This document shows positions 5,001-25,307 of a stretch of DNA of 32,000 bases, piece by piece. Position 1 is the stretch's first letter; each line of letters starts with the position of its first letter. The DNA is from Crocosphaera subtropica ATCC 51142. GTDB lineage: Bacteria; Cyanobacteriota; Cyanobacteriia; Cyanobacteriales; Microcystaceae. Both the position numbers and the translations under genes were made by a program. The DNA is taken from NCBI RefSeq assembly GCF_000017845.1, contig NC_010546.1:4440001-4472000 (forward strand), read 5' to 3'. The notes under the pieces were generated by a model that searched no databases, was not told the DNA's origin, and saw only the letters and a list, made by a program, of their open reading frames with translations.

Positions 5001-5345
5001 ACTTTACCTCAAGACGAACAATATAGTGATCGCAATGCTGTTTATTGGGACATTATTGTTTGTCTATGGCAAGTAATTGGTCGTTTAATTAGGGGAAATG
5101 CTAACGCTGAAGTTTTTTGGTGCGATGCTAAATTTGCCCCCAATACGGCTAAAAATGGTGATGAATCCGATAATGTAGCAACTAGCACTTTAGTAGGAAT
5201 TGCTCATTTATTGCATCCCTATTTTCAAGAGGATTCCGATATACCGCAGCAAGAAAAATTAATTGTACAGCGTTTGTACAAGCCTTTTTATAAAGCTATT
5301 ATTCAAACAAAAGGTGTGTCAGGTTTACCAATAGTAAACATTTAG
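2094..5345 (+). CDS. Large SF2 helicase-like P-loop ATPase, DinG/XPD-like. This matches the helicase component of the pPIWI-RE-type island.
   Basis: Walker A is GGIPSAGKSVL and Walker B is LVIIDEVDQHQ. Four Cys (codons at 3102, 3165, 3225, 3243) sit between Walker A and B, as in the Fe-S insert of XPD/DinG helicases. The gene is translationally coupled to the upstream gene and lies 18 nt before the downstream gene. Confidence 0.65.
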   Translation: MRNITEWQESLKDDLDTGLLNVELGLYLLESLLPNATAKSLWVLLTGYDYSFTEKQNWTQEQRQMLSIARHLLAQYASPKLWSDTLDRYQEYPEETRGYEITELGTFERRTNITVANNRFEVYERSLNTPVVLSQRKEVSWAREGQYKCEVEKRMDTVTITSELANFPRPPSHNLNNNSQRETLNIPWRDLHSTAEWMDEQRIEKGLNPIWINCFERMKLEVFNDSEELVEADYLRLDCIKHLGGIPSAGKSVLMKVLTVYAYRRGLKVTLIVADVLQIFDLIKTFTEVNINDVAPILGNSNKASHLSRLHKAVYNANPNEPYNQNHPGFKYLSSACLLTPYITPRLEKAFEIGKQPCFSLEPIESEESEEFTNNKYCPAYGVCPSHQKERDLVKASIWIATPGSLIYSKVPRTINRENIIYFELMARRSDLVIIDEVDQHQAYLDSAFSPNQTLRRPTRDAWIDELHDLVETKLKYTQSKLLHKDFIADWWDALQEARQIADTIYGLLTEENRINLGKWRSYKRYFTDWLLLNEVATLLTVRNKQEPQPEEINNRQWFMQYVFQPYINSKLEPDVKAEELDQRDKQLLLQLTLIANKKKKKLAIRKWINEVATIQLSKEEKNKVIATLEFALLVCTLQRNLYLVTSRWQFVRGILNLNMSDSMWFEFPPLDFNPLIPNMPMGNQLAFQYLKSYKEPLGSLQVFRCTGVGRWLFTNFANLFQGDNFKPPYLLMMSGTSWAGESSAFHVDVPVSGIISPREEKEIKIDSKFLPFYDDQQKPISVSGTGDKKDYNLKKIVSKLVEKNYLEEKLQQLNGRKILLLVNSYLQVDTVYEHLKDLGWEDRVIPLSRDDENINEWEDIKDKSLQRGQSKEFATGKEEILIAPLKSIERGHNIVNVDGKAAIGAAYFLVLPHPSPDDLSYAIHSINRWAIDNYKKVSGETLDELGDNFRKNAYAKWRHWLQLSIRLRTLPQDEQYSDRNAVYWDIIVCLWQVIGRLIRGNANAEVFWCDAKFAPNTAKNGDESDNVATSTLVGIAHLLHPYFQEDSDIPQQEKLIVQRLYKPFYKAIIQTKGVSGLPIVNI

Positions 5346-5363
5346 TTTCAAGGAACAATTTTT

Positions 5364-10207: not shown

Positions 10208-10448
10208 ACCTATTAGGGAATTCTCTAGACCAATAAGAATTTTTAAGGCTTTTTGTTATTTTTACTGAAGAGTTGGGAATAGTATAGATAGCGGATCAGT
10301 ATTCAAACATTTTTCTGTCACTCATTGTTCCTATTGAGACCTGCTAGAGACTTTAAGCTATAGATTTAAAACTTAAAGTCATTGCTTGCTCTGACCGTTG
10401 CTCAATTCTGCTATCAATATTTACATCTTAAATCTAAAGGATAGATAT

Positions 10449-12872
10449 ATGGACAGCCAGCAAAACCACGAGTCTAACTCTATTAGTTCTAATAATGGTC
10501 ATGCTAACCATGAGCCTGAAATGACGAATGATCAACAAGAGAAAGACAAAATAATTATTAGTGGATATTCCCAAGTTAATGAGTATCAATCTAACGAAGA
10601 AAATGCAACCATCATTGCTAAAGAAGAAGCCATAGATAGTAAGAATCAAAAACTTACTTTTTGGCAACGCTTTAATCTAAAAACTAAAGCCACATTATTA
10701 GCGGTAGCCATTGGCACTATTCCCGTATTAGCCATTGGAGGTGTTAATTACTACTTAACTGAACAGTCTCTCACCAAACAAGAATTCAAGTACCAAAAAA
10801 CCAGAGCGGTAACCGTTAGTAATGACCTGACTCAATTTGCTAAAAATAATTACCAAAAAGTCATGGATTTATCCAGACTTCCTATTTTAACAAATCCCGA
10901 ACTATCTGAAAAGCTTAGTAAAGAAGAAAAGGAGAAAGCCTTAGAGAAATTTCTCAAAGATGGAGTGAATAGTATTGTCGTCATCGATGCTAAAACAGGA
11001 AATACGGTTTTAGAAGGTAGAGAAGCTAATAGAGAAGCAACTATTCCTAACTATAGTAAAATTGATTATTGGCAAGAAGTTGTTAAGACTAAAGAACCAG
11101 TCATCAATCCTTTAAGAATATCAAAAGCTAATAATTTATCTTCATTTTTTGTAGCTGCTCCAGTATTTCATGAAAAAACAGGAGAACTATTATATGTTAT
11201 TCGGACAAGAACCGATGCCAGCTATATTGATAATTTAATTCGTTCAAGTATTAAATATCGTTCTGAAGAAGTTGGTGATCAAGGAGAACCCAAATATTTA
11301 GTTACGGATCAAAATAATAAAGTATTTGTTTCTGAAAAACCCGAAGAAATTGATCAAGATATCAATAAATTTTTCCCTAAATTTTCAACCTTAAAAACGG
11401 CTCAAAAATCAGAAGTTGCTTTTGATGTCAGTCCCATCAATCAAGAAAAATATGTGGTTGCTTATACGCCCCTACAAAATGTTGATGGTTTACCCACTCA
11501 AGACTGGAGTATTATCGTCGCCGATAAAGTCAGTACAGCCTTTGCACCCCAACGTTATTTACTATTAACCTTTACCCTGGGAACTTTACTGACAGCGTTA
11601 GGGGTTGCCATATTAGCTGCGTATTTAGCGAACCGAGTCACCCAACCCATTATTAATGCAGCCCACGCCGTTGAACAAATTGGAGATGGAGAATTAGACA
11701 CCCGTATTGAAGTGACAGGAAATGATGAAATTGCTAAATTAGGGTCTAATATTAATCGCATGGTGGATCAAATTCAAACCCTATTGGTTGAACAAGAAGA
11801 AGCCACCCGTCAACGGTTAGAAGCGCAACAAGACAGCAAACAACAACAATTGATTGCCGAAAAAGAACGACAACAACAACAACAACTGCAAAATGAATTA
11901 ATGCGACTGTTGAGTGATATTGAAGAAGCTACCAACGGCAACTTAACCGTTCGTGCTGAAATTTCTGACGGACAAATTGGTATTGTGGCGGACTTTTTTA
12001 ACGCCATCATTGAAAGTTTACGGGACATTGTTACCCAGGTAAAACAAACCACCCAACAAGTGAACTTATCTTTGAGTGGAGATGAAAAATCTATCCAAGA
12101 ATTAGCCCAACAATCTCAAGGACAAGCCCAACAAATTCAACAGGTTTTAAACTCTGTTGAAGCTATGGCTCAATCCATTCAACAAGTCTCAGCCAATGCT
12201 CAAGCTGCAGCCCAAGCAGCCAGAGAGTCCTCCCAAACCGCTCAACTGAGTGGAGATGCTATGGATAATACCGTTAATAGTATTCTCCAATTACGGGATA
12301 CGGTTGGAGAAACCACCAAGAAAGTTAAACGGTTAGGGGAATCATCCCAACAAATTTCTAAAGTTATCTCTTTAATTAACCAAATTGCCTTACAAACTAA
12401 CTTACTTGCCATTAATGCAAGTATTGAAGCAGCCCGTGCAGGAGAAGAGGGACGAGGGTTTGCGGTGGTTGCAGAAGAAGTGGGACAGTTAGCAGCCCAG
12501 TCGGCCGCAGCTACCAAAGAAATTGAAAAAATTGTTGAAACTATCCAACGAGAAACCAGCGCAGTCGTTGAAGCGATGGAAGTGGGGACTGCCCAAGTTG
12601 TCGAAGGAACCAATTTAGCTGAAAGTACCAAAGAAAGTTTAGGCAAAATTGTGGTGGTTTCTCGTCAAATTGATGACCTCCTACAATCTATTTCTCAAAC
12701 CACAGTGTCTCAAGCGGATACCTCGAAATCGGTTACCCAATTAATGGAAGAAGTGGCTCAAGTATCCCAAAAAACTTCTGATTCTTCTATCCAGGTGTCC
12801 CATTCCTTACAACAAACAGCCCAAAAGGCTAATCAATTACAAGAGTCTGTTGATACCTTCAAGTTGAGTTAA
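10449..12872 (+). CDS. Methyl-accepting chemotaxis protein (PilJ/Tax-type): periplasmic sensor, HAMP and MCP signalling domain.
   Basis: Two TM segments flank a region of about 290 aa. The HAMP segment is [27 protein letters not shown]...[14 protein letters not shown]. The highly conserved MCP hairpin is [42 protein letters not shown] 10449 is preferred over the tracked TTG 10398. Confidence 0.9.
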
Positions 12873-12880
12873 ACACCATT

Positions 12881-12985
12881 GAAGGAGGCAGGAGTGGAAA
12901 GGCAGGCGGTTCAGAGGTTAGAAAGTGAGCAAGAAACCTCGCCTTGGTCACACCTCTCCCCTGCCTTCCGAGGCAGAAACCTCGG
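12881..12985. repeat. Nested palindromic G-rich element in the MCP-CheA intergenic spacer.
   Basis: Outer arms are 12881-12897 (GAAGGAGGCAGGAGTGG) and 12951-12968 (CACCTCTCCCCTGCCTTC). The inner hairpin is GAGGTT 12914-12919 / AACCTC 12935-12940. A second hairpin is CCGAGG 12968-12973 / CCTCGG 12980-12985. Confidence 0.6.
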
Positions 12986-13022
12986 TCAGTACACCGAATA
13001 ATCGCTCGTAGGGACATCAATC

Positions 13023-16022
13023 ATGACACAGGATAAAGAAAAAAAAGTCAGGTTACAATTTCTTACAGAAGCCCAAGAATATTTGAATAACCTAGAATCA
13101 GGGTTATTAGGGTTAGGAACTCATGGCATTCATCGTCAACAAATTGATCGCCTATTAAGGGCAGCCCATTCGATTAAAGGGGGGGCGGCCATGATGGGGT
13201 TTCAATCCCTTTCTGACATTGCTCACCGTTTAGAAGATTTCTTCAAAGTCCTCAAAGCTGAAGGAAGTCACAGGGTAGATGAAGAACTAGAAGGGCTATT
13301 TTTAAGCAGCGTCGATCGTCTCAGACAAATTGCCCAATGGAACCGTCAAGGGGTTGAGATTGACCCCACTTGGTTAAAAAAAGAGGTGAATCCTCTCATG
13401 GATGCCCTCTACGAACGCCTAGGTGATCCTCAACCAGAAGATGCGGTTAACCTTCTCTCAGAAGAAGCAGAGGAAGACATGGTTGTACTCATGTTTGAAT
13501 CGGAAGTGGAAGGCTGCTTACAACGGTTAGAATCAGTATTTCATAATTCCCAACGGCCTTGTTTACGGGAAGAATTTTTGATTGCAGCCCAGGAATTAGA
13601 AGGGTTGGGGCAGATGTTAGAGTTACCGGCCTTTTCTGCCCTCTGTCAGTCTATTATTCAAGGGATTGAAACCTATCCCGATGCCTTACCAACAGTGGCT
13701 AATTTAGCCCTACAAGCCTGGCGGCGATCGCAGGCCATGGTGATGATCGGACAACGGGAGATGATGCCCACCGAACTTAATTTCTCCTGTTTAAATACAA
13801 CGGAGTTAACAGAAACTTGGGAAGATAGGTTTGCCGGGTTCGATGATTCTCCTTTATCCTTTGGTATTCCCTCTAACACAGACTCCCCCTCTTTCTTAGC
13901 AGAGGCGTTAACCCAATGTGCTGATATGTCTCTAGAAGTGAATGCAGCTTTGGAGTTAGAGGAACAAGGGGACCCCTTGGAAATCATTATGACTCCAGAT
14001 ACCTTAAAGTCCTACGTTACGCCTCAAGAGTTTACTCAAGAAGCCCAAGCATTTTTAGCCGATTTAAACGATTCGACCCCTCAAACGCCTAAAGATTTTA
14101 TTATTACTTCCTCGTCTGACCAAGAAAAAGAAACCGAGGATGACCCTGAACAAGATACCATTCGGGTTCCTGTCAAACAATTAGAAACCCTCAGTGATCA
14201 ATTTGGAGAATTGACCATTGAACGCAATGGTTTAAATTTACAGATCAAACGGCTACGTCATCTTATTGAACGATTAAGCGATCGGGTCGGCATCCTCGAA
14301 GAGTCCAATCAACGGTTACGCCATACCTACGATCAGATCACACCTCAAGCTAAAAGTAGTGATCCTCAAATCATCAATACTCTGTTGCAAGAGTTTGATT
14401 TATTGGAAATGGATCGTTATGGCGATGCTCATCTTGTCTCCCAAGAAATTATGGATACGGTGGTTCAACTCCAAGAAGTCACCAACGATTTACAACTCAA
14501 TTTAGAAGATACGGAAAGTTCTTCACGAGCTTTTTCTCGCACGTCTCAATTAATGCAGAATACTATCACCCAATTGCGAATGCGACCTATTTCTGATGTG
14601 GTGGGACGGTTTCCTAGGGGGTTACGACAAATGGAAGTGCAATATGGAAAACAGGTCAATTTGAAGATTAAAGGAGGTGCAACCTTATTAGATCGAGCCG
14701 TACTAGAAGCCTTAAATGATCCGTTATTACATCTTTTACGCAACGCTTTTGATCACGGGATTGAATCCCCGGAGGTTCGTCAAAGGATGGGAAAACCTGC
14801 CACAGGAACCATAGAAATTACAGCCGGTTATCGGGGCAATAAAACAGTGATTACCCTGCAAGATGATGGAATGGGTATTGATTTAGAGAAAATTCGGGAC
14901 AAAGCGTTGGAAATGGGATTACAAGAAGCTGATCTTCAACAGGCCAGCCATCAAGACTTATTAGACCTTATTTTTGAACCTGGGTTTAGTACCGCAGCCA
15001 AAGTAACCGACTTATCCGGTCGTGGGGTAGGAATGGATGTGGTTCGCACCAATTTACATGAAATTCAAGGGGATATTCAGGTCAATACACAGCCAGGAAA
15101 GGGGACAATATTTACCATTACGGTTCCTTTTACTCTCTCAGTGGTGCGGGTCTTGTTAGTGGAAAGTGGCAGAATGTTATTGGCTTTTCCTCATACTGTC
15201 ATTGATGAAATCGTCCGTCTGCATCCTGAAATGTTTGTGAGTGGTGCAGGTCAAGAGGTTCTTAACTGGGATGGTTCTTTAGTTCCTCTCATCAGCTTGA
15301 AACAATGGTTTAATTTCCCCAGGCCTCCGCAGATGATTCCAACGGATGTAACTCCAGTGATTGATGAACCAACAGTTTTAATGATTGCTCATGGTAACAA
15401 TTATCTGGGGATTCAAGTTGATCGCTATTGGGGTGAACAAGAAGTGGCTATTCGACAAGTAGAAGGTAATATCGGATTACCTTCAGGGTTTGGTGGATGC
15501 ACCATTTTAGGAGATGGTCGAGTGGTTCCCTTGGTGGATGTGATGGGATTGTTACAATCAAATGATAGTGATTCTTCTCCATCTTCTTTTACCCCGAAAC
15601 TTTCTCCCACCGTGACTGAGTTAGACTCACAATTTATTGATAATCAGTCTACGGGGATTATGGTGGTAGATGATTCTATCAATGTCCGTCGCTTCTTGGC
15701 CTTAACATTAGAAAAAGCTGGTTATCGGGTAGAACAGGCTAAAGATGGTCAAGATGCTTTAGATAAGTTACAAGGGGGTTTAGGGGCAACGGTTCAACTG
15801 GTGATCAGTGATATTGAAATGCCTCGTCTTGATGGTTATGGTTTACTCTCTCATCTCAAATCTAATCCTCTCTTTCAACCCTTACCTGTCATTATGCTAA
15901 CGTCTCGCAGTGGGGACAAACATCGTCAATTAGCGATGAATTTAGGGGCTTGTGCTTATTTTTCTAAGCCGTTTAAAGAAACTAATTTATTAACGACTAT
16001 TAAACAGTTTATTGAGCATTAA
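13023..16022 (+). CDS. CheA-like hybrid histidine kinase (PilL-type): Hpt, dimerisation, HATPase, CheW-like and receiver domains.
   Basis: Hpt is RAAHSIKGGAAMMGF. The N/G boxes are HLLRNAFDHGIE, DDGMGID and GRGVGMDVV. A CheW-like segment follows. The C-terminal receiver is MVVDDS...ISDIEMPRLDG...SKPF. Confidence 0.9.
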   Translation: MTQDKEKKVRLQFLTEAQEYLNNLESGLLGLGTHGIHRQQIDRLLRAAHSIKGGAAMMGFQSLSDIAHRLEDFFKVLKAEGSHRVDEELEGLFLSSVDRLRQIAQWNRQGVEIDPTWLKKEVNPLMDALYERLGDPQPEDAVNLLSEEAEEDMVVLMFESEVEGCLQRLESVFHNSQRPCLREEFLIAAQELEGLGQMLELPAFSALCQSIIQGIETYPDALPTVANLALQAWRRSQAMVMIGQREMMPTELNFSCLNTTELTETWEDRFAGFDDSPLSFGIPSNTDSPSFLAEALTQCADMSLEVNAALELEEQGDPLEIIMTPDTLKSYVTPQEFTQEAQAFLADLNDSTPQTPKDFIITSSSDQEKETEDDPEQDTIRVPVKQLETLSDQFGELTIERNGLNLQIKRLRHLIERLSDRVGILEESNQRLRHTYDQITPQAKSSDPQIINTLLQEFDLLEMDRYGDAHLVSQEIMDTVVQLQEVTNDLQLNLEDTESSSRAFSRTSQLMQNTITQLRMRPISDVVGRFPRGLRQMEVQYGKQVNLKIKGGATLLDRAVLEALNDPLLHLLRNAFDHGIESPEVRQRMGKPATGTIEITAGYRGNKTVITLQDDGMGIDLEKIRDKALEMGLQEADLQQASHQDLLDLIFEPGFSTAAKVTDLSGRGVGMDVVRTNLHEIQGDIQVNTQPGKGTIFTITVPFTLSVVRVLLVESGRMLLAFPHTVIDEIVRLHPEMFVSGAGQEVLNWDGSLVPLISLKQWFNFPRPPQMIPTDVTPVIDEPTVLMIAHGNNYLGIQVDRYWGEQEVAIRQVEGNIGLPSGFGGCTILGDGRVVPLVDVMGLLQSNDSDSSPSSFTPKLSPTVTELDSQFIDNQSTGIMVVDDSINVRRFLALTLEKAGYRVEQAKDGQDALDKLQGGLGATVQLVISDIEMPRLDGYGLLSHLKSNPLFQPLPVIMLTSRSGDKHRQLAMNLGACAYFSKPFKETNLLTTIKQFIEH

Positions 16023-16045
16023 TTCATTTTAAACATTCTTTGATT

Positions 16046-16567
16046 ATGACTATTTATTCTCATCATCGCTCTCGCCGTTTGGCTAATAAAAATAAGGAAA
16101 ATACTCGACAAATTGTTACTTTTCTTTTAGGAAAAGAATGGTTTGCTTTGCCTATTGATGCGATTCAAAAAGTTGTCCAATTAGGTAAAATTTATGGTGA
16201 TCCTCAACAGAAAGGTATTAGTTTAACTCATTATCAGGGTCAAGAATTATTAGTCATTGATGTAGCTCGTCGTATTTTTGGTACAGAGGTGCTTCTCTCT
16301 CATAAAGATACTGAGCAAACTCGTTTTTTACTAATTATTCACAATAAAAATAATGAAATAGTTGGATTACCCATTGATTCACCTCCCTCTATTCTAAGGA
16401 TTCCTGAATCAGCTTTGATTCCCTTACCCGATATTTATTTAACTCAAGGTAATATTGATTGTATTAGTTCTACTCTCATTCAAGTTAATGAGCAACAATC
16501 TTTCTTTTTATTAGATGTTAGTCAGCTAATGTCAGTAAAAGGCGACCATTTATCGGTTACCCATTAA
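16046..16567 (+). CDS. CheW-like coupling protein.
   Basis: IVTFLLGKEWFALPIDAIQKVV...VGLPIDS is the typical CheW fold signature. It follows the CheA-like gene. ATG 16046 is preferred over the tracked TTG 16040. Confidence 0.8.
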   Translation: MTIYSHHRSRRLANKNKENTRQIVTFLLGKEWFALPIDAIQKVVQLGKIYGDPQQKGISLTHYQGQELLVIDVARRIFGTEVLLSHKDTEQTRFLLIIHNKNNEIVGLPIDSPPSILRIPESALIPLPDIYLTQGNIDCISSTLIQVNEQQSFFLLDVSQLMSVKGDHLSVTH

Positions 16568-16622
16568 CTTATCTAATCTCCGGGCTTATTAATGTAAAAT
16601 AGGATGATCTTTTCTTTATTGA

Positions 16623-16694
16623 CTGGGGTGCTAGGATTCGAACCTAGGAATGGCGAGACCAAAACCCGCTGCCTTACCGCTTGGCGACACCCCA
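16623..16694 (-). tRNA. tRNA-Gln (anticodon UUG), 72 nt, CCA not encoded.
   Basis: The reverse complement folds as TGGGGTG TC GCC AAGCGGTAA GGC A GCGGG TTTTGGT CTCGC C ATTC CTAGG TTCGAAT CCTAG CACCCCA G. The cloverleaf is complete, with the T-loop TTCGAAT. It is near-identical in layout to E. coli tRNA-Gln(UUG). Confidence 0.9.
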
Positions 16695-16715
16695 ATATTT
16701 ATTGTTGCCTTTGTA

Positions 16716-16746
16716 ATTATAACAATAGGTGTCAGTGGTTTGTCAA
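16716..16746 (-). promoter_or_regulatory. Near-consensus sigma-70 promoter for tRNA-Gln.
   Basis: On the minus strand, TTGACA is at 16741-16746 and TATAAT at 16716-16721 with a 19-nt spacer. The -10 lies about 20 nt upstream of the mature tRNA 5' end. Confidence 0.5.
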
Positions 16747-16754
16747 GTATTTTT

Positions 16755-17741
16755 TTATTTATTTTTTACGGATAGTCTCTGAAACTGGGATGTTGAGTGC
16801 TTTTCAATTAAATAGTCAAGAAAAGAATGGTATTCTAACGGAAGATTCTCTCGATAGTCAGATTCCGTTAAGAGTTGAATAATTAAAGTAGGATGAACAT
16901 TATCTGTCTCAACTTCCTGGGGAGTAAAAGGAATATTCTCTAACTCGCAAAATAGTTCTTTTAACTCATGTAGAATGGGATGAAGACTAATTTTCATGTT
17001 ATTAATAGCTTCTTGAAAAATAGTGTTTTTGTTATCTAACTCAGCTTCAAATTTTTTCTGTTCTACTTTTAGTTTATTTTCATTGCCAGATAGTTCAGAT
17101 GAGATTTTCCAATATTTAATTCCTTTAGCGAGTCCATCAATCCCTGTAAAAATTGCTAAACTAAAAAATATTAAATAAAAGAGAGGATTAGCGACAAAAA
17201 ACATCGTTAATAACCCCACTCCTATATAGTTAGCTACATTTTGAATAGTATTCCCTGTTGTTTTTTCAAGTTTTTTCTGTTGCTGTTTAAGTTCTTCTAG
17301 GGTTTGAGTGTACTTATTTTGATTTAAGATGACAGTTTTTTGTCTTGTCTGTTCAAGTTGTTGAGTAAAATCTTGTTTAATAATTTCAGCTAAATAAGTA
17401 CGGTCTATTTCTTCATCTCCTGCCCAAATTTCTAATTGTGGTCGAACAAATACCCCATTTTCAAGTTTATTAACCGCTTCATCAAAGCAAAAATGACAGA
17501 TAAAATCCTGAGAACCGCAACCTGTTGGTAGTAGAAAAACGGGAACCGTACAAGGGGTAAAAATTGTACTCATTACCCTTGCAATGGTATCTGAACCAGC
17601 TTTTGTGATGGTATTGGTAACGGTTTTACTTGTTTCTAAAATCCAACTATTCATAGAATTTGCTACATTGATAGCTGGATTAGTAACAACTTTGAGACTA
17701 TCTAATTTTGGCAAATTTAAAAATTTTTTATGATTAATCAT
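16755..17741 (-). CDS. Hypothetical membrane protein: a Cys-containing N-domain and a 2-TM hairpin flanked by coiled-coil segments. Candidate effector of the SNF2/Hsp70-like cluster.
   Basis: 328 aa. The 4-Cys patch is PCTVPVFLLPTGCGSQDFICHFC. The hydrophobic hairpin is YIGVGLLTMFFVANPLFYLIFFSLAIFTGI, between heptad-like K/E/Q-rich stretches. No family was recognised. Confidence 0.6.
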   Translation of the reverse strand: MINHKKFLNLPKLDSLKVVTNPAINVANSMNSWILETSKTVTNTITKAGSDTIARVMSTIFTPCTVPVFLLPTGCGSQDFICHFCFDEAVNKLENGVFVRPQLEIWAGDEEIDRTYLAEIIKQDFTQQLEQTRQKTVILNQNKYTQTLEELKQQQKKLEKTTGNTIQNVANYIGVGLLTMFFVANPLFYLIFFSLAIFTGIDGLAKGIKYWKISSELSGNENKLKVEQKKFEAELDNKNTIFQEAINNMKISLHPILHELKELFCELENIPFTPQEVETDNVHPTLIIQLLTESDYRENLPLEYHSFLDYLIEKHSTSQFQRLSVKNK

Positions 17742-17802
17742 AGAATATTTGTCTTAAATATAAGAATAATTTAGTAAATCTTTGATAAAAGCTCTTTTTC
17801 TC

Positions 17803-17834
17803 AAAAAAATGAAAGGGGTGAACAGTTACACCCC
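17803..17834 (-). terminator. Rho-independent terminator-like hairpin 16 nt after the Hsp70-like gene's stop.
   Basis: The minus strand reads GGGGTG-TAACTGTT-CACCCC followed by TTTCATTTTTTT. On the plus strand, the stem arms are at 17815-17820 and 17829-17834 and the A7 run is at 17803-17809. Confidence 0.55.
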
Positions 17835-17850
17835 AGATTGATGGATTATT

Positions 17851-19368
17851 TTACATTGACGAGTGATCATCAGGATATCTACCCCATTCAGGAATAGTTG
17901 GTTGACAAAGAGGTGATGACTGCACGTCTGCAAACTGTTTAGGGAAACCTTTAACTTCTGGGGCTTGATAATCAGGAATAGATAAGCCATAAGCAATGGC
18001 AAAACGATGAAAATTATTTTTACTAATTCCCTTCATATCAAAGTCACTAGGAAATGGTACATTTTGAACATTATATGAAGGAATACCACATCTTTCCTGA
18101 CAAAATGCCGTGTGTGTTCCTTCGATAGTATCCCGATAAAATTCAGATTGTCCACCGCCACCACCAAGAAAAATTCTTAATTTGGGCTGATTTCTTAATT
18201 CATCAGGAATTTTGTCTTTACAGGTCAAAATAACGTCAGAAACTTGTTTATGAATTAAATGCTGTCCTAAAATTAAATGTAATAGTTTTTGAGATGGAAA
18301 ATCCTTCATTATTTCTAGACAGGATTGAACTTCCTCAACTAAAACTCGCCAATGAGGACCTGGAAGAAATACTTTATTAGCTATATGTTCTCCTTGTTTA
18401 GCAGAACGAGCTATGGTAGCTGAAAGGTTATAAATTTCTTCTAAAAGCCATTCACTATTGTTGATAATATCGTGAGTGATCTCATTTTCAGAATTGGGCA
18501 AATGTGTAGCAATCTGTTTGGCTAAACCATTAACACCAATGGGTTCTACTTCTCCTGAATAATATTCAACACTCGATTGTCCTTCTTCTCGGAAGAAACG
18601 AAAAGCTGACCCTTCAATGGTTCCGCTTCCTACATCAAAGAACATATAAATGCCTGGATCTGCTTGCCGAGAAACCGTATAAGAATAGACTCCAGCCCCA
18701 ATTTCAGGAAAAGCAAAGCAGGGTATTGGCAAATCTTCTTCAGTATATTGACTTTCTAATGTTTCTAACTCTTTTCTCAAAGAATTCATTCGTTTTTGTA
18801 AATTATAAATATTTTGTGGTGAATTTTCTCCTAGTAACCAAGCTAACCTTAAGACTTTTTTAAAACGAGTGATCGCCTTTGAGTCAAAGTATTTAACTGG
18901 AACTCCTACGTTAGCACTCCATTCAATGTTTTGATTTTTGACTAACTCAGGGTTATCTTCCTTGACCCATTTTTGAGCTTTAAAAATTACTTTATTAAGA
19001 TAATAGGCACATAAATTTTCCAGGTTTTCTGAAGTATTTAGATCAATCTGATCGAAACTTTGTAAAGAATCCGAGAGATGTCCTTGTCCTTCTTCTTGTA
19101 AGTCTAAATTTGCCAATCTCATCTTAATAAAATCGATAGCAACGGCAAAAGAAGTGACGCTTTCATCCCATTCTGATTGTGTTAATCCTCCTATAAGAGT
19201 TCCATCAGGACAAATTCCTATCTTTGTCGGGACTAAAGCTTCATTCAGTGAAGTTTTCTTTTCACAAAAAGTTACTAACCAAGAATGTTCAATACTGGTA
19301 TCTCGAACAACAACTTTAGTAAAACTGGTTCCAAAATCAATCCCTAAATTAAGAAATAAATCAGACAT
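17851..19368 (-). CDS. Hsp70/actin-fold (ASKHA) ATPase: an Hsp70-like nucleotide-binding domain without a recognisable substrate-binding domain.
   Basis: Phosphate-1 is LGIDFGTSFTKVVV. Phosphate-2 is FFDVGSGTIEGSAF. The adenosine/connect motif is IFLGGGGGQSEF. Its start codon lies 3 nt downstream of the SNF2 gene's stop. Confidence 0.7.
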   Translation of the reverse strand: MSDLFLNLGIDFGTSFTKVVVRDTSIEHSWLVTFCEKKTSLNEALVPTKIGICPDGTLIGGLTQSEWDESVTSFAVAIDFIKMRLANLDLQEEGQGHLSDSLQSFDQIDLNTSENLENLCAYYLNKVIFKAQKWVKEDNPELVKNQNIEWSANVGVPVKYFDSKAITRFKKVLRLAWLLGENSPQNIYNLQKRMNSLRKELETLESQYTEEDLPIPCFAFPEIGAGVYSYTVSRQADPGIYMFFDVGSGTIEGSAFRFFREEGQSSVEYYSGEVEPIGVNGLAKQIATHLPNSENEITHDIINNSEWLLEEIYNLSATIARSAKQGEHIANKVFLPGPHWRVLVEEVQSCLEIMKDFPSQKLLHLILGQHLIHKQVSDVILTCKDKIPDELRNQPKLRIFLGGGGGQSEFYRDTIEGTHTAFCQERCGIPSYNVQNVPFPSDFDMKGISKNNFHRFAIAYGLSIPDYQAPEVKGFPKQFADVQSSPLCQPTIPEWGRYPDDHSSM

Positions 19369-19371
19369 TAG

Positions 19372-22300
19372 TTAGTTCTCCACAAAAATAATTCCGGTAG
19401 CTAAAGTAGGATTAGAAGTTGCAATTTTTCGTTTTTTGTCAATTTTTTTCAGAGCTAAATTGAGACGTTCAGTATTTTTGCCAATTTTTCCTGCCTCTGC
19501 CGAGATAATTGACAATTTTTCTTCACGTTTGAATCTTTCGATTCTTTCTTCAAATTCTTTTCTTTTTCTGTCTGCATAAGCTTTAACACTACTTTCTTGT
19601 GTATTACACTTATCTGTATTTTCCGCCTCAAAAAGTATTTCATTATCAGCAAAATCTAGACTTAAGGACTCCTGGCACTGTTCATAAACTTTAATAATTT
19701 GTTCAATGTTGATTAGATTAATTACATTCGGCTTATGTTTGCCGTGAATAGCTGTTGTATTAATGAGATTTTCTGTTAGTTCATTAGACAATTCTTGTTC
19801 ATCTTCTAAGCAAATTGCCTTATAAGATAAACGAGTTTCTATTCTGATTCCTTCAAACTTCCAGCATTGAATGACATAAATATAAGTACCTGTTTTTATG
19901 TCTAAATCTGTTGCTTTCAGATTTAATGTAGATGCTGAAACTGTTTGGAATCTTAATGATGGTTGTTCTCTGGATGATTGAGGCTCATATTTATCACGAA
20001 TCCATTGAATCAAGGGATGGGTTGGATCTATGAGTTCATGATTAGCTTTCCCCATTGTTCCAGCTACTTTTGAATCAAAGAAACAATTTACAGGTTGACG
20101 ATCTAAAAATGTTGAGGTTGAAATACGAGTTTTTTCTTTAAAAAGTTTTAAGTCAATTTTTGCGTCTTCTGAAAGTTTAATCTGATAAAGACTTTCTATT
20201 TTCTGATTTGGAGTAATTACTGTACCAGGATATTGAAGCTGAAAAAAGTCTTCGACAAAAGCTTTTAATTCATCTGGAGTTAACCATCTTTTTTGCTCAC
20301 GACTTTTATCAACTGTACTCAAAATATAATCTGAAAATGCGACCAAATTCATCGCTTCATTTTCCAGTTTTCTTTCTAGTTCCATTTGATCTGCGATAGC
20401 CCTAATTTGACGATCAGCTTCTTCTTTAAGTTCTTTCTCATTAAGTTTAGGGTTAAGTAAATCTAACATTAGTTCTTCTGTTTTTTCTCCTAATATTTCC
20501 TCTAAATCTCCGATACTTTCTTCAAATATATGAATTCTTTCGTAAAGTCTTTCTAAAATATATTCTTCTATGGTATCTTTCAAACTAAAATTAATAATCG
20601 AAATAGTCTCTGATTTTTGATTTAAACGGTCTAATCTTCCAATACGTTGTTCAACACGCATAGGATTCCAAGGTAAGTCATAGTTAATTAAAAATCGACA
20701 AAATTGTAAGTCGATTCCTTCACTTCCTACTTCTGAAGATAATAAAACTGAGATTTGATTATTATCTTGAAAAGACTTAAGTTTGTCTTGTTTATCTTCT
20801 TTATCCATACCTCCTAAAATAAGACAAATTTCAATGCCATCTTCTTGCAGACGTTCCGCTAAATAGGTTAAGGTATTACGATAGAATGCGAATAAAACAA
20901 ATTTTTCTTTTGGATTTTCCGCTAATTTTTGTTTGAGACATTGGATTAATTCTTGATATTTAGTATCATGTTTTCTTAAATCAGTAATAAATTGCTGAAG
21001 CTCTTGTTCATTATTAGGGATAGGATTAATGGGCATTTCCCAATCAACTGATTCTTCTAAACTACCTTTATAACCATTTACGGCATAATCTATTAAAGAG
21101 CCATGAATTTCATAAAGTTCTTCTTCATTATCATCTATAGCTAAAAGGTCATCAATAACTCTTGTCTTTTTTTCAGGGTCTATTTCTGTCCAAGCTTCTA
21201 AAGCAGCAACCATAGAGCTTGCCATTTGTCTCTGTCGTGCCATTAATCTAAATACATTAAATTTAGATTCTCCTATAGCTTGAAGCCGAATTTTATAGCT
21301 TATATAGTCATAAACTTCTTTTTCTTGTTGGGTAAAATTAACGGTTAGTGTTTGAGGTTTTCGCTTAACTCGATGATCTTTGAGGACTTCTCTTTTTCGG
21401 CTTCTTGTCATAAAATGACCAAAAAGGGAAGCACTTTCTAAAATTTGAGCAAACCGAACTTGTTGTTCAGAAGTAATTGTATCACTAGAATTTAATTCTT
21501 TATAAAGATTATCTAATCTTAAACTTTTACGAAAATAATTAGATTTTAGAGCCTGTTCTATTAACTCTCTAATCTCTTCAATATTTGGCTGTGTTTTCCA
21601 AATTAATTTGAGAGCATCAACAATCGGTTTATTATCTTCTAGCATCTTTTCAAAGTTAGTCGAATCAAAAAAATCGTCAGGACTAATTAGTTTTAGTAAT
21701 TGATATAAATTATTACTACGAATCTGAATGGGAGTTGCTGTTAGTAAAATCAAATATCTTGAAACTTCTCGTAAAAGATTTCCTAATTTGTTATTAGCTG
21801 TTTCTGGGTTGCGTAAATAATGAGCTTCATCAATAATGACTAAATCAAAAATTCCTCTGTCGTCAATCACTGGGTTTTCTTCTAGTAAACGAGCTAATTT
21901 TGCTCTTGTGTCGTTAGATTTTTTTTCATCATCCCAGTTTTTTACTCTCATTCCTTCTAAACTGGTTACATAAAGAAATGAATCAGGAGTGCCATTTTGA
22001 GTAAATGACTGAACTTTTTCGAGGAGTCCTTTAGTATCGATAATCTCTGCATATAAATTAAAGCGATTTCTTAAATCATTAACCCACTTATCCCGTAACA
22101 TAGCAGGACAAACAATTAAAAGACGACGAGCATCTTCTCTAATTTGTAATTCTTTCCAAATGTACATAGACTCAATGGTTTTACCGAGTCCAACTTCATC
22201 AGCAATCAGTAATCGTCCAACTGAGGAATCAAGAAATTTAAGAACAGGTTTAAATTGATAAGCATAAAAGTCAGTATTACTAGACTCCATACTATAAAAA

Positions 22301-22590
22301 ATATTTGTTAAATCACCTTTGATTTTTTCAAAGGTTAAAATTCTTCGTAAATCGTCAGGATTTCCGAACTTTCCATCACGGATTAAATCATTAATACTTT
22401 CTTCCACTTCGCAAAGTTCTAACTGTTGATACTGCTTGTATGTATTTTCATTCGGTCCAAAGTTAATAAGTACCAATAAACGTCCAGCAGATTTTCTTGT
22501 TTTTCCAGTTGTAAAACCTTGTTTTCCAGGATTGTTTTTTAGTCTAATCTTTTGATTAGGAATTTCAGGATTCCAAGTTTGTTCAGTCAT
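19372..22590 (-). CDS. SNF2-family helicase/translocase with an N-terminal beta-rich module and a long C-terminal extension.
   Basis: Motif I is LIADEVGLGKTIE. Motif II is VIIDEAHYLRN. Motif III is LLLTATPIQ. Motifs V/VI are LLSSEVGSEGIDLQ...NPMRVEQRIGRLDRLNQ. Confidence 0.9.
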   Translation of the reverse strand: MTEQTWNPEIPNQKIRLKNNPGKQGFTTGKTRKSAGRLLVLINFGPNENTYKQYQQLELCEVEESINDLIRDGKFGNPDDLRRILTFEKIKGDLTNIFYSMESSNTDFYAYQFKPVLKFLDSSVGRLLIADEVGLGKTIESMYIWKELQIREDARRLLIVCPAMLRDKWVNDLRNRFNLYAEIIDTKGLLEKVQSFTQNGTPDSFLYVTSLEGMRVKNWDDEKKSNDTRAKLARLLEENPVIDDRGIFDLVIIDEAHYLRNPETANNKLGNLLREVSRYLILLTATPIQIRSNNLYQLLKLISPDDFFDSTNFEKMLEDNKPIVDALKLIWKTQPNIEEIRELIEQALKSNYFRKSLRLDNLYKELNSSDTITSEQQVRFAQILESASLFGHFMTRSRKREVLKDHRVKRKPQTLTVNFTQQEKEVYDYISYKIRLQAIGESKFNVFRLMARQRQMASSMVAALEAWTEIDPEKKTRVIDDLLAIDDNEEELYEIHGSLIDYAVNGYKGSLEESVDWEMPINPIPNNEQELQQFITDLRKHDTKYQELIQCLKQKLAENPKEKFVLFAFYRNTLTYLAERLQEDGIEICLILGGMDKEDKQDKLKSFQDNNQISVLLSSEVGSEGIDLQFCRFLINYDLPWNPMRVEQRIGRLDRLNQKSETISIINFSLKDTIEEYILERLYERIHIFEESIGDLEEILGEKTEELMLDLLNPKLNEKELKEEADRQIRAIADQMELERKLENEAMNLVAFSDYILSTVDKSREQKRWLTPDELKAFVEDFFQLQYPGTVITPNQKIESLYQIKLSEDAKIDLKLFKEKTRISTSTFLDRQPVNCFFDSKVAGTMGKANHELIDPTHPLIQWIRDKYEPQSSREQPSLRFQTVSASTLNLKATDLDIKTGTYIYVIQCWKFEGIRIETRLSYKAICLEDEQELSNELTENLINTTAIHGKHKPNVINLINIEQIIKVYEQCQESLSLDFADNEILFEAENTDKCNTQESSVKAYADRKRKEFEERIERFKREEKLSIISAEAGKIGKNTERLNLALKKIDKKRKIATSNPTLATGIIFVEN

Positions 22591-22719
22591 ATTTTTTATA
22601 CCTAAAATTGTTATTTAACCTTACCCCAATCGTTAGTCATTTCCTCTAGATGATTGTTGATTTAATCGTAAGTGAACTTCTGCTCCCTCGTCAGTCCCCA
22701 TTTCCTTCTGCCCCAGGTG

Positions 22720-23913
22720 TCAGATATCTTCCACTTCGGGTTGAGAGGATTGTAATAATCGATTAGCGTCTGTATTTTGAGGGGATGAAAACAGAAATCG
22801 GACTTTCCAGTAGATAAAAGACAAAGAAAAACCTTGAGGAATGGTATTATTTGATTGACTCATTGAAGGTTGTGTATGTTTAGTCTCCCAACTACTACAT
22901 AAGTCAGAGAGATTCTGAGGATGTTTAACCAGTTCTCGTAAAGAACTATATTGCTCTTGAGTGAGATTTTGCCATAATTTTTCACCGAGTTCAGTTTGCT
23001 CATTAATAAACCACTCGTTAATAAAAGCTTTCACTTGTTGCTCATTAAATAAAGTTAAATAATAAGTTTGGAATCGAGAGGAAGGAAAATTTTTATTGTC
23101 AATAATCCGTGACTGACAACCGGCAAAAATATTGGCTTCACCTATCCATCCTTTGAAAAGTGTATCTAGTAACTTAATTGAGCGTTTATTGTTTGCTAAC
23201 CCATCAATCAGTAACCAGACATTTCCTTGTTTAAATAAATTTAAAAGATGCTCTGAAGAAAGCACGATATGAGGAAAAAAAGAATGGGCTTCTCTTAGCC
23301 AATCTTCGATTAAATAATAGGTAATTGATTTATTTTTTAGCTTTTCTAAAGATAGGTAAATAGGATAACCTTTCTTATTTTTTAAAATCCACAAACCAAA
23401 TTGATATAAAAAACTACTTTTACCAATTCCTTTCTCTCCTAATAATAAACATTTACTCTGCCCCTCAAGCATTTGAGATTCATAAAAAGCTTCTCTATTA
23501 ATAAGATTATCATTATTAGAAAGATGAGGAGAAATATAAATTTCTTTTGAATTAAGAGACTCTGAATTAACCTCAAGCATTTGTAAACAAACTGTTTCCC
23601 AGTCCATAATAGGCTGAATGATTCTGCTTGAGTATTCTTGTTTAAGCCAAGATATAAGAATTTTTGACTTATCTGCTTTTTTTTCTGTCAGTTTTTCGCA
23701 TCTTTTTTCTAGTTTTTTATAGATTTCAGTTAGCTGTTTTTTATAAGTTTCTTTAGTCGTTTGTAATTCAGTTTCAGCTATTTCATAAAACTCAGATTCT
23801 GATAGATGCCGATAGATTTCGCTAAATCGACAACGGAAAATTTTCGATTGTCCAGACGATAATTCATAATCAACTGCGATCGTGCATAAAAAACTATCCC
23901 AAGAGAAGGTCAT
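22720..23913 (-). CDS. Short NACHT/STAND-like P-loop NTPase with a helical HTH-like N-terminal leader and no C-terminal repeat sensor.
   Basis: Walker A is LLLGEKGIGKSSFLY. Walker B is VWLLIDGLAN. The N-terminal FLCTIAVDYELSSGQSKIFRCRF...EIAETEL...YKKQLTEIYKKL resembles the leader seen on many cyanobacterial NACHT/WD40 proteins. It is on the same strand, 129 nt upstream of the SNF2 gene. Confidence 0.6.
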   Translation of the reverse strand: MTFSWDSFLCTIAVDYELSSGQSKIFRCRFSEIYRHLSESEFYEIAETELQTTKETYKKQLTEIYKKLEKRCEKLTEKKADKSKILISWLKQEYSSRIIQPIMDWETVCLQMLEVNSESLNSKEIYISPHLSNNDNLINREAFYESQMLEGQSKCLLLGEKGIGKSSFLYQFGLWILKNKKGYPIYLSLEKLKNKSITYYLIEDWLREAHSFFPHIVLSSEHLLNLFKQGNVWLLIDGLANNKRSIKLLDTLFKGWIGEANIFAGCQSRIIDNKNFPSSRFQTYYLTLFNEQQVKAFINEWFINEQTELGEKLWQNLTQEQYSSLRELVKHPQNLSDLCSSWETKHTQPSMSQSNNTIPQGFSLSFIYWKVRFLFSSPQNTDANRLLQSSQPEVEDI

Positions 23914-24107
23914 GATTAATACCTTAGAACTAATGCTAGGACACAGAGTTATTAGGAAACTCCAAACCTCTTTTTTTCCTGATTATTCTGAGTATTCCCA
24001 AAAATAATGACTTAATTACACCATCAAGTAGGTGTTTTTCCCGTCGCAAACTTCTTTTAAAAGTTCAAACATACTCTAAAATTAAGCGAGTTAATAATGA
24101 CCCTTAC

Positions 24108-24959
24108 CTATTTCTTATTCCCTAACGGTTGACATTGAGGACAAAAATGAGAAGACCGTCCTCCTAATTTTATTCGTTCAATGGGTGTCCCACACACACG
24201 ACAAGGTTGGTTATGACGACCATACACCCAAGCAACACCGCTATAATTACCATTAATACCTGTCACCCCTCGAAAATCACTAAAAGTTGTCCCACCCTCT
24301 TCAATCGCCGTTTTCAACACTTCTATCATGGCTTCTCGTAACCGTTTAACCTGGGGTTGGCTTAATTCTTTTCCTAGGGTTGTCGGTCGAATGCCACTCT
24401 TAAATAACGCTTCATCGGCATAAATATTGCCTATTCCTGCCACCACACTTTGATCCAGTAGAATGGTCTTAATATTGCGCTGACGACCCTTTAATTTATC
24501 TATGAAGTAATCCAAGGAAAAAGCGTTTGAAAAGGGTTCTAGACCCAATTTTTGTAGTCCTGTGATGATAGTTTCAGGGGGTTGGTTAGGGGGAACCCAC
24601 CACACTTTACCAAAGGTGCGAATATCGACAAATCTTAATTCTTTCGAGCGATCGCAAAACAAACGTAAACGGGTATGACGGGATAAGGGTTCGTTTTGTT
24701 TAACCCATAATAATTGTCCTGTCATGCGTAAATGAACTCCTAACCATCCTTTCTTCTCTTCTAGGGGAACCAGTAAATATTTACCTCTTCTTTGCCACTG
24801 GCCAAAAGTCGCATTGTTAATCTGTTCTAGAAATTCTTCGATAGAAACGGGGTAAGCAAGTGTGCGTGGTAACAACACTTTCCCACCCCGAATGGTTTGC
24901 CCAAAGGTCAATTGATTTAACCCTCGGCAAACCGTTTCAACTTCAGGAAGTTCTGGCAT
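24108..24959 (-). CDS. mutM: Formamidopyrimidine-DNA glycosylase.
   Basis: The N-terminal MPELPEVETV carries the catalytic Pro2/Glu3. The H2TH region is present. The C-terminal zinc finger is CRVCGTPI...GGRSSHFCPQCQ. Confidence 0.92.
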   Translation of the reverse strand: MPELPEVETVCRGLNQLTFGQTIRGGKVLLPRTLAYPVSIEEFLEQINNATFGQWQRRGKYLLVPLEEKKGWLGVHLRMTGQLLWVKQNEPLSRHTRLRLFCDRSKELRFVDIRTFGKVWWVPPNQPPETIITGLQKLGLEPFSNAFSLDYFIDKLKGRQRNIKTILLDQSVVAGIGNIYADEALFKSGIRPTTLGKELSQPQVKRLREAMIEVLKTAIEEGGTTFSDFRGVTGINGNYSGVAWVYGRHNQPCRVCGTPIERIKLGGRSSHFCPQCQPLGNKK

Positions 24960-24975
24960 TTAATCCTGAAACCAA

Positions 24976-25197
24976 TTACTTGGACTTAGAGGCAACAACT
25001 TCTAATTCGCTTTCAGCAAAGTTGTTGGTATTAACCCCAGTGGCACTACCACTGTAGCCATTGTAATTGACTTTATCAAAACGGACGACGACAGGATAGA
25101 TGATACCAGCTTTATCGACAGTGGCAACGGTACCAATGTCGTTGTACCAGTAAGATTCTTTGCGTTTGATTCTAACTTTGTCTCCACGCTTGACCAT
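24976..25197 (-). CDS. psaE: Photosystem I reaction centre subunit IV.
   Basis: [68 protein letters not shown] is near-identical in pattern to cyanobacterial PsaE. ATG 25197 has an AAGGA Shine-Dalgarno. The tracked ORF carries a spurious 10-aa extension. Confidence 0.92.
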
Positions 25198-25307
25198 AGG
25201 TATTGTCCTTAATAAATGGATATTCAAACAAAGGCAAGGAATAAGCTCCTTATCTATAAAAGCCTACTATTGGATCGCAACACCTTGCTACTTCAAAAGT
25301 TTAAGTT

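Follow-up and report, generated by a model that had tools for sequence, protein, structure and literature searches.

Which of the genes between a tRNA-Gln gene and the mutM-psaE pair of Crocosphaera subtropica (Cyanothece) ATCC 51142 belong together, and what could they do for the cell? An earlier note on this DNA had taken four co-oriented minus-strand genes at this site, encoding a NACHT-like NTPase, an SNF2 helicase, an ATPase of the Hsp70 fold and a membrane protein, to be a single candidate defence system. We analysed the 32,000-nt stretch that contains them (the window, whose positions are used below unless another contig is named) and listed all 21 of its open reading frames (ORFs) of at least 100 aa. 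The ORF listing, ARAGORN and Pfam reproduced the four co-oriented genes and their position. We found that the SNF2 gene and the adjacent ATPase gene form one conserved, co-evolving evolutionary unit, and that this two-gene cassette is autonomous, horizontally mobile and exchangeable, with the two outer genes as the flanks of a variable slot. The pair is probably a defence module. The locus is laid out as follows:

16621-16695, minus strand: tRNA-Gln(ttg), at the edge of the low-GC island (ARAGORN)
16755-17741, minus strand: orphan membrane/coiled-coil protein cce_4319, 328 aa, downstream flank of the slot (hydrophobic stretch)
17751-22662, minus strand: two-gene cassette, consisting of a 72-nt leader, the SNF2 gene, the Hsp70-like ATPase gene and a terminator-like hairpin (alignment to the sister contig L081)
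17806-17834, minus strand: terminator-like hairpin with T-run, 17 nt past the ATPase stop (sequence)
17851-19368, minus strand: ATPase cce_4320, 505 aa, resembling the Hsp70 nucleotide-binding domain (NBD; ASKHA fold) (AlphaFold2 model and Foldseek)
19366-19385, minus strand: junction of SNF2 stop and ATPase start, with a Shine-Dalgarno-like GGAG (sequence)
19372-22590, minus strand: SNF2 gene, encoding a RapA-/DrmD-like SWI2/SNF2 ATPase of 1072 aa (Pfam, PADLOC, AlphaFold2 model)
22720-23913, minus strand: short NACHT-domain NTPase, 397 aa, upstream flank of the slot (Pfam)
24108-24959: mutM (Pfam)
24976-25227: psaE (Pfam)

The 505-aa and 328-aa ORFs are identical to cce_4320 and cce_4319, respectively. 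The limits of the cassette emerged from a sister Crocosphaera contig (L081; Logan SRR21285602), which has the end of mutM, the NACHT gene (95% aa identity, with the NACHT annotation on this orthologue as well) and the membrane gene (90% aa identity). The nucleotide sequence of this contig is 93-95% identical to window positions 24157-22663 and 17750-16703; homology stops at 22663 and resumes at 17750, and a different 3.8-kb cargo lies between. The breakpoints of the alignments fall 72 nt 5' of the SNF2 ATG and 10 nt 5' of the membrane gene ATG. In the sister contig, the cargo (1499-5329 of L081) comprises a dynamin-like GTPase with a weak LeoA/LeoBC match and two ORFs of 297 and 450 aa, the longer of which has a weak JukB match. 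Since the SNF2 and ATPase genes are here exchanged against dynamin-like cargo, they constitute a 4.9-kb cassette (17751-22662) in a variable slot that is flanked by the two outer genes. Scanning metagenomes with the NACHT protein returned no further variants of this hotspot, nor did an exact flank 28-mer, and no convincing att-like or boundary repeats were found around the cassette or the island.

The slot is contained in a low-GC island of ~16.7-24.0 kb that adjoins tRNA-Gln and is free of HIP1 (GCGATCGC), a property that had been noticed by eye. GC content is 0.31-0.32 over all four genes (0.324 over the cassette) against 0.43 in mutM and cheA, and it falls from 0.43 to 0.32 at tRNA-Gln. HIP1 occurs at 10 sites in the window against a chance expectation of 0.07, with none in the stretch from 13732 to 24647.

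Within the cassette, the junction between the two genes reads gtGGAGaacTAActaATG (...GAG AAC TAA cta ATG...), a 3-nt gap as earlier noted, and a GGAG is placed 11-14 nt 5' of the ATPase ATG; judged from this arrangement, the two genes are predicted to be translationally coupled. The ATPase gene is followed, still within the cassette, by a hairpin, GGGGTGTAACTGTTCACCCC, and then TTTCATTTTT (stem 17834-17815 plus T-run). A scan for sigma-70-like promoters was uninformative, giving fewer matches than shuffled sequence.

We then took 79 genome loci that each encode a homologue of the 505-aa ATPase. They represent cyanobacteria, alpha- and gammaproteobacteria, spirochaetes and acidobacteria among others, with Rhizobiales, Paracoccaceae, Caulobacterales, Arenicellales, Spirochaetia, Clostridia and Pyrinomonadales as the groups outside the cyanobacteria. 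A full-length SNF2 homologue, 36-64% identical to that of the window, is immediately adjacent on the same strand in ~66 of the 79; among the other loci, several are truncated where the contig stops. Moreover, identities to the window proteins co-vary between the SNF2 and ATPase partners (Pearson r = 0.92, n = 52). All-versus-all clustering of 1071 ORFs from these loci showed that only the SNF2 and ATPase families are conserved across them; no other family occurs in more than six loci, no conserved third gene was found, and the same-strand downstream ORFs of the cyanobacterial loci share no kinship with one another. The gene-neighbourhood comparison thus bore out the idea that SNF2 and Hsp70-like genes make a coupled module. 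Searched at E<=1e-30, 1.84 billion cluster representatives yielded 438 members of the ATPase family (~440 clusters at 50% identity), and the pair is distributed patchily over at least five phyla. A few ATPase homologues have no adjacent full-length SNF2 gene despite available flanks (L023, L077 and L078), and one locus (L030) has weak, fragmentary matches only. The ATPases of these four loci are 25-37% identical to that of the window, and one of them is a second copy in Geminocystis; such partnerless homologues may mark other partnerships of the ATPase family.

The pair comes in two arrangements. In 33 loci the SNF2 gene precedes a short ATPase gene (median 496 aa), as in the window, with a median gap of 1 nt and frequent 4- or 8-nt overlaps. 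In 26 loci a long ATPase gene (median 748 aa, up to 1454 aa) precedes the SNF2 gene. These long forms, about half of the ATPase family, combine a hydrophobic hairpin at the N-terminus with a coiled coil of highly variable length, from 200 to ~1000 residues, which consists in part of near-perfect tandem repeats of ~60 residues (SQLQQDLSNFQNAIESR...); examples are P0247 (1454 aa), P0244 (1115 aa), P0254 and P0250, in alignment columns 1-460. The length of this stalk differs greatly even among close relatives.

The 1072-aa SNF2 protein contains the Pfam domains SNF2-rel_dom (8.6e-25) and Helicase_C (5.2e-23), and its motifs I (DEVGLGKT), II (DEAH), III (TATP) and VI (QRIGRxDR), listed before as intact, are unchanged among 41 homologues. 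It matches the PADLOC DrmD model PDLC02623 end to end (E 1.9e-304). Among other PADLOC models, BrxHI/HII scored 2e-65, HmaA 2.5e-54, which is weak beside DrmD, and ZorD 8e-15 over the helicase core only. The cutoff of neither relevant NCBIfam equivalog was reached, with 469.5 bits against 610 for DISARM_DrmD (NF038317) and 162.6 bits (1.3e-47) against 576 for RapA (PRK04914). For the AlphaFold2 model of the protein (pLDDT 74.9), the best PDB matches in Foldseek were the E. coli RapA structures 6bog, 8spg and 8t0l, over 1055-1112 columns and at E 2e-33 to 8e-31, compared with ~1e-16 for other SNF2 enzymes. The modelled chain follows the RapA architecture of an N-terminal beta domain, an SNF2 core and C-terminal alpha+beta domains, and we regard the protein as a RapA-/DrmD-like SNF2 ATPase with a RapA-like fold predicted over its full length.

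The 505-aa partner matched nothing specific in Pfam, NCBIfam, PADLOC, PHROG or PDB sequences, even with a 59-sequence profile, and a profile built from the long forms returned coiled-coil noise only. Its fold was resolved by structure prediction alone. The top 50 Foldseek matches of its AlphaFold model (pLDDT 90.8, pTM 0.89) are all NBDs of DnaK, BiP, Hsp70 or Hsp110 (E 4e-13, prob 1.0), and ParM, MreB and actin are absent from these 50. The motifs that had been assigned to the ASKHA fold are invariant in 59 sequences: D11, G13 and T14 of phosphate-1 (GIDFGT), E222 of PE, D245, G247, G249 and T250 of phosphate-2, and GGG 403-405, together with K18 and K82. As far as these alignments indicate, both proteins of the pair retain their ATPase catalytic residues. 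In the model, the NBD and its helical insertions account for all 505 residues, leaving no substrate-binding domain (SBD). Lacking an SBD and a Pfam HSP70 match, the ATPase is therefore Hsp70-like rather than an Hsp70. It ends, past a variable linker, in a conserved short C-terminal tail, GRYPDDHSSM (window 17851-17880), which reads R-Y-E/D-D-x-R-D/G-S in distant homologues (alignment columns 1001-1025); this tail, which can be loosely likened to the EEVD tail of Hsp70, may serve in docking.

Elsewhere, the pair is found among genes of named or candidate defence systems. In Geitlerinema sp. PCC 7407 (CP003591; L082 6725-13162), the gene order is DrmD (PDLC02621), SNF2, ATPase, DrmMI, DrmA and DrmB; the SNF2 protein there matches PDLC02623 with 1632 bits, is 52% identical to that of the window and is named DrmD by NCBI, and the ATPase is 44% identical. 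By its gene content this locus is a DISARM class 1 operon with the pair inside it. Its tandem SNF2 genes belong to two PADLOC 'DrmD' clades, and only the second (PDLC02623) precedes the Hsp70-like ATPase gene; the same tandem of two SNF2 genes is present at another locus (L009). The PADLOC label 'DrmD' therefore spans at least two distinct helicase families.

In Mesorhizobium (L043 and L044, the only loci with HmaB and HmaC beside the pair), the order is HmaB (E = 0), HmaC (E 2.6e-286), SNF2, ATPase and PDC-S68; as the pair directly follows HmaB-HmaC, the SNF2 gene occupies the helicase position. Loci of Rhizobium and Sinorhizobium have a DpdF/UvrD-like helicase of 1700 aa, followed by SNF2, ATPase, PDC-S68, a gene for an HKD+Snf2 protein and DUF4391. 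PDC-S68, a PADLOC candidate, is a RecD/AAA_30-type helicase of 1245-1284 aa whose copies are 37-62% identical. It lies directly 3' of the pair in seven alphaproteobacterial loci (L043-L047, L058 and L059, at ~11.3-15.2 kb in each), and its conservation downstream of the pair is limited to alphaproteobacteria, which suggests a three-gene variant in these bacteria. Helicases of the ParE/RelE-UvrD type (ArmD-like) occur near the pair in L024 and L058. Four plasmid records carry the pair as well: on a Leptolyngbya BL0902 plasmid it lies beside a CRISPR array with cas1-cas2, HigB and a relaxase, and on a plasmid of Cyanobacterium sp. HL-69 it lies among toxin-antitoxin genes, XerD, ParA and hsdR.

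How far is this module already covered by known systems? The SNF2 protein appears to belong to the DrmD family and the pair stands in the Geitlerinema operon, so the module is related to a named system, DISARM, which was reportedly described by Ofir et al. in 2018. The likeness to DISARM class 1 consists of the end-to-end match to PDLC02623 and of the Geitlerinema arrangement, where a homologue and its ATPase stand between DrmD and DrmMI-DrmA-DrmB. In contrast, PADLOC and Pfam scans of the window gave no match to DrmA (helicase), DrmB (DUF1998/MZB), DrmC (phospholipase D-like, PLD) or DrmMI (methylase), and its only other large genes are a pPIWI-RE trio and chemotaxis genes. Furthermore, the Hsp70-like partner has no model among the DISARM or other families of PADLOC 2.0, and in most genomes the pair stands alone.

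Zorya, which is said in published work to combine a ZorAB membrane complex bearing a long coiled-coil tail with an SNF2-type ZorD, offers an analogy of design only, in that the long forms would join a membrane hairpin, a variable stalk and an ATPase head in a gene next to that of an SNF2 motor. None of the four window proteins, however, matched ZorA or ZorB, and the ATPase of the window is short and anchor-less.

BrxHII and BREX-related helicases have been described as RapA-like (PMC12839542), and ArmA as BrxHII/RapA-like (PMC12458937). The SNF2 protein shares with them its best structural matches, which are to RapA, and its BrxHI/HII score, whereas an Hsp70-like partner has not been reported for RapA, BrxHII or ArmA, and PglX/PglZ-type and YprA-type genes are absent at the window pair. 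With Hma, a candidate system of helicase, methylase and ATPase (PMC8565338), the resemblance lies in the Mesorhizobium loci, but the DUF1156-type methylase HmaB and the DUF499/BrxC-like ATPase HmaC are absent from the window. Hsp70-like folds as non-chaperone parts of predicted immune systems are known from CoCoNuT, in which CnuD accompanies McrBC-type GTPases and keeps an SBD with degenerate ATPase motifs (PMC11090510), and from GTPase-tubulin-HSP70 systems, in which the fold accompanies TRAFAC GTPases and tubulin (PMC7159879). There is no SNF2 coupling in either; unlike CnuD, the ATPase of the window has no SBD and has invariant catalytic residues, and ORFs for a McrB-like GTPase or McrC/DUF2357 were not found in the window.

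We found no literature that pairs an SNF2, DrmD-like or RapA-like helicase with an Hsp70-like or ASKHA ATPase, in a search whose coverage leaves many subscription journals outside. Together, the helicase is of a known kind (DrmD, BrxHII, ArmA, HmaA), and PADLOC 2.0, Pfam and NCBIfam contain neither its partner nor the minimal two-gene system. The earlier statement that no named system pairing the two genes could be recognised holds in part only, in view of the DrmD match of the SNF2 protein and of the pair's place in a DISARM class 1 operon.

We favour, with some reserve, the reading that the pair is a two-gene anti-phage or anti-plasmid module belonging to the DISARM, BREX-related, Hma and ARMADA group of RapA-like helicases. 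A defence role is supported by the kinship with DrmD, the recurrence of the pair inside arrays of DISARM, Hma and PDC-S68, its location on plasmids and in a hotspot, and its patchy distribution. In the mechanism we propose, the SNF2 protein would be a nucleic-acid motor that translocates along the DNA of an invader or on a transcription or replication complex that has stalled, much as RapA acts on RNA polymerase. The Hsp70-like subunit would detect a trigger and, as a switch powered by ATP, gate, load or localise the motor. In the long forms, the membrane hairpin and coiled-coil stalk could station the motor at the inner membrane, at the entry site of foreign DNA, and the short, anchor-less ATPase of the window would act in the cytoplasm. 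As the pair shows no recognisable nuclease or methylase, it would interfere by blocking or remodelling, or in cooperation with partners such as DrmMI-DrmA-DrmB, HmaB-HmaC or the RecD-like PDC-S68.

Several points weigh against this reading. Its main weakness is that neither the SNF2 protein nor the ATPase has a nuclease, methylase or other effector domain recognisable by Pfam, PADLOC or NCBIfam, so that a principle for telling self from non-self is missing. The defence role is guilt by association, and the part of the ATPase as a switch or localiser is conjecture. A physical interaction of the two proteins is suggested by translational coupling and co-divergence only: no SNF2-ATPase fusion was found, the family members of 1115 and 1454 aa being coiled-coil repeat extensions. 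The confidence of the SNF2 model is moderate at the pLDDT given above. Finally, the pair has varied neighbours in cyanobacteria, most of them resembling housekeeping genes: the 113 ORFs nearby cover 221 Pfam families, with only three or four DrmD-like or other SNF2 helicases and two ORFs that carry an MZB domain. Given such neighbourhoods, we claim no defence-island enrichment there.

A bolder form of the proposal, which we put forward tentatively, is that the pair by itself makes up a new type of immune system. A non-chaperone ATPase of the Hsp70 fold would serve as sensor or switch and license a RapA-like motor against invading DNA or its transcription. Half of the ATPase family would use a coiled-coil stalk, anchored in the membrane and tunable in length (200-1000 residues), to place the machine where DNA enters. 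In some DISARM class 1, Hma and PDC-S68 arrays, the pair would then be an unrecognised accessory.

Four other explanations have to be set against a defence module. Unlikely, in our view, is that the pair is a non-immune, RapA-like factor of transcription or DNA maintenance with an Hsp70-like co-factor, acting for example in the rescue of stalled RNA polymerase or in nucleoid remodelling under stress, and spreading horizontally as a self-contained unit. The full-length likeness of the model to RapA, the NCBIfam RapA match, the mostly housekeeping cyanobacterial neighbours and the lack of an effector or methylase in the pair would all suit such a factor, as would the finding of no phage-borne ATPase copies in 50,697 phage records, and hence no counter-defence footprint. 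However, the score falls far short of the RapA equivalog cutoff, the cassette is exchanged against dynamin-like cargo with weak LeoA and JukB matches, and its host block is low in GC and HIP1-free with a pPIWI-RE defence island 8 kb away. The embedding in DISARM, Hma and PDC-S68 arrays, the plasmid copies beside CRISPR and toxin-antitoxin genes, and the patchy phyletic pattern also speak against a non-immune factor.

We judge it improbable that the pair is no more than a detached DISARM class 1 fragment, a DrmD with an accessory that has no function of its own and either needs DrmA, DrmB, DrmC and a methylase encoded elsewhere or is decaying. Such a fragment would account for the full-length DrmD match, the NCBI name of the 52%-identical homologue and the complete-looking operon around the Geitlerinema pair. 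But that operon already has a separate DrmD of the PDLC02621 clade beside the pair, which makes the pair an add-on there, and at more than 50 loci, including mobilisable plasmids, DrmA, DrmB and DrmMI are all missing within 10 kb of the pair. In addition, both ORFs are intact with invariant catalytic residues, the NCBIfam DrmD cutoff is missed, and the pair also accompanies the non-DISARM partners Hma and PDC-S68.

The four-gene system of the earlier note, in which a STAND/NACHT regulator and a two-transmembrane (2-TM) abortive-infection effector would complement the two ATPases, is essentially refuted, and we hold it very unlikely also in the softer form in which the membrane protein is a generic adaptor or effector for any upstream cargo. 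The single proteins had been read correctly. Pfam places a NACHT domain at residues 155-305 of the 397-aa protein with 30.1 bits against a gathering score of 26.7, and the membrane protein has a single 40-residue hydrophobic stretch (169-208), split by Asn-Pro between E/K/Q/L-rich segments, which fits the putative transmembrane hairpin with coiled coil. The NACHT protein has no further domain at the curated Pfam cutoff, no PADLOC match and only 11.8 bits to HyoA in NCBIfam, and neither the C-terminal sensor repeats nor the N-terminal effector of antiviral STANDs (Avs/NLR-like) were found in it. The genes are co-oriented, closely spaced and all low in GC, the membrane protein resembles in architecture the N-terminal extension of long-form ATPases, and the NACHT and membrane genes are together in two strains. 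Nevertheless, tblastn (E<=1e-5) gave zero matches to either protein in the 79 SNF2/ATPase loci. A search of 5.8 billion proteins yielded just two relatives of the membrane protein, both encoded downstream of dynamin-like genes and without SNF2 or ATPase: one in the sister contig and one in L080 (6028-10915), where a dynamin-like gene (834 aa) and ORFs of 199 and 213 aa precede the homologue next to a phage-type integrase, without a NACHT gene. Between the ATPase and membrane genes lies a terminator-like hairpin, and the boundaries of the cassette fall exactly between the pair and each flank. The orphan membrane protein may instead belong to a dynamin-type module.

It is scarcely credible that the pair serves the mobile element that carries it, for instance by maintaining a plasmid or island through a DNA motor and an actin-like segregation ATPase of the ParM type: the ASKHA superfamily does include ParM-type partition ATPases and four plasmid records carry copies, but the top 50 structural matches are Hsp70 or Hsp110 NBDs with no ParM, MreB or actin among them, most copies are chromosomal with no conserved neighbouring element genes, the window has no centromere-like or boundary repeats, and the HL-69 plasmid has its own ParA next to the pair.

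As a probable defence module, the pair bears on the roles of RapA-like SNF2 helicases (DrmD, BrxHII, ArmA, HmaA) in DISARM and BREX, which are poorly understood; a co-evolving Hsp70-fold partner in a minimal two-gene unit provides a simple handle on motor function and its switching. If our reading is true, an Hsp70 nucleotide-binding fold with intact catalytic residues joins the immune regulators that are paired with DNA motors, and the forms with a membrane stalk point to a Zorya-like 'guard at the membrane' that arose along another path. In the Crocosphaera slot, nature provides a clear example of one candidate defence cargo exchanged for another, SNF2/Hsp70-like against dynamin-like. For annotation, PADLOC-type tools flag the SNF2 gene as an orphan 'DrmD' and miss its partner, which a family model of the ATPase would fix.

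Around the island, a 92-aa ORF (16604-16882, plus strand) runs antisense across tRNA-Gln and into the 3' end of the membrane gene and is almost certainly spurious. Directly upstream of the island, a chemotaxis-like cluster (10398-16567, plus strand) resembles ordinary core genome with a GC content of 0.43; it encodes a hybrid CheA (Hpt, HATPase, CheW and receiver; 999 aa), a CheW (175 aa) and an 824-aa protein that we take, from reading its sequence by eye, to be of the methyl-accepting type. The pPIWI-RE island lying 8 kb from the pair is complete, with three genes at 907-8258 (plus strand; GC 0.325) for an REase with a Y domain and a MerR-like N-terminus (396 aa), a DinG-type helicase with a Z domain (1083 aa; PADLOC PprDinG, E = 0) and pPIWI_RE (964 aa), and its sole HIP1 site is at 8118, close to the 3' end.

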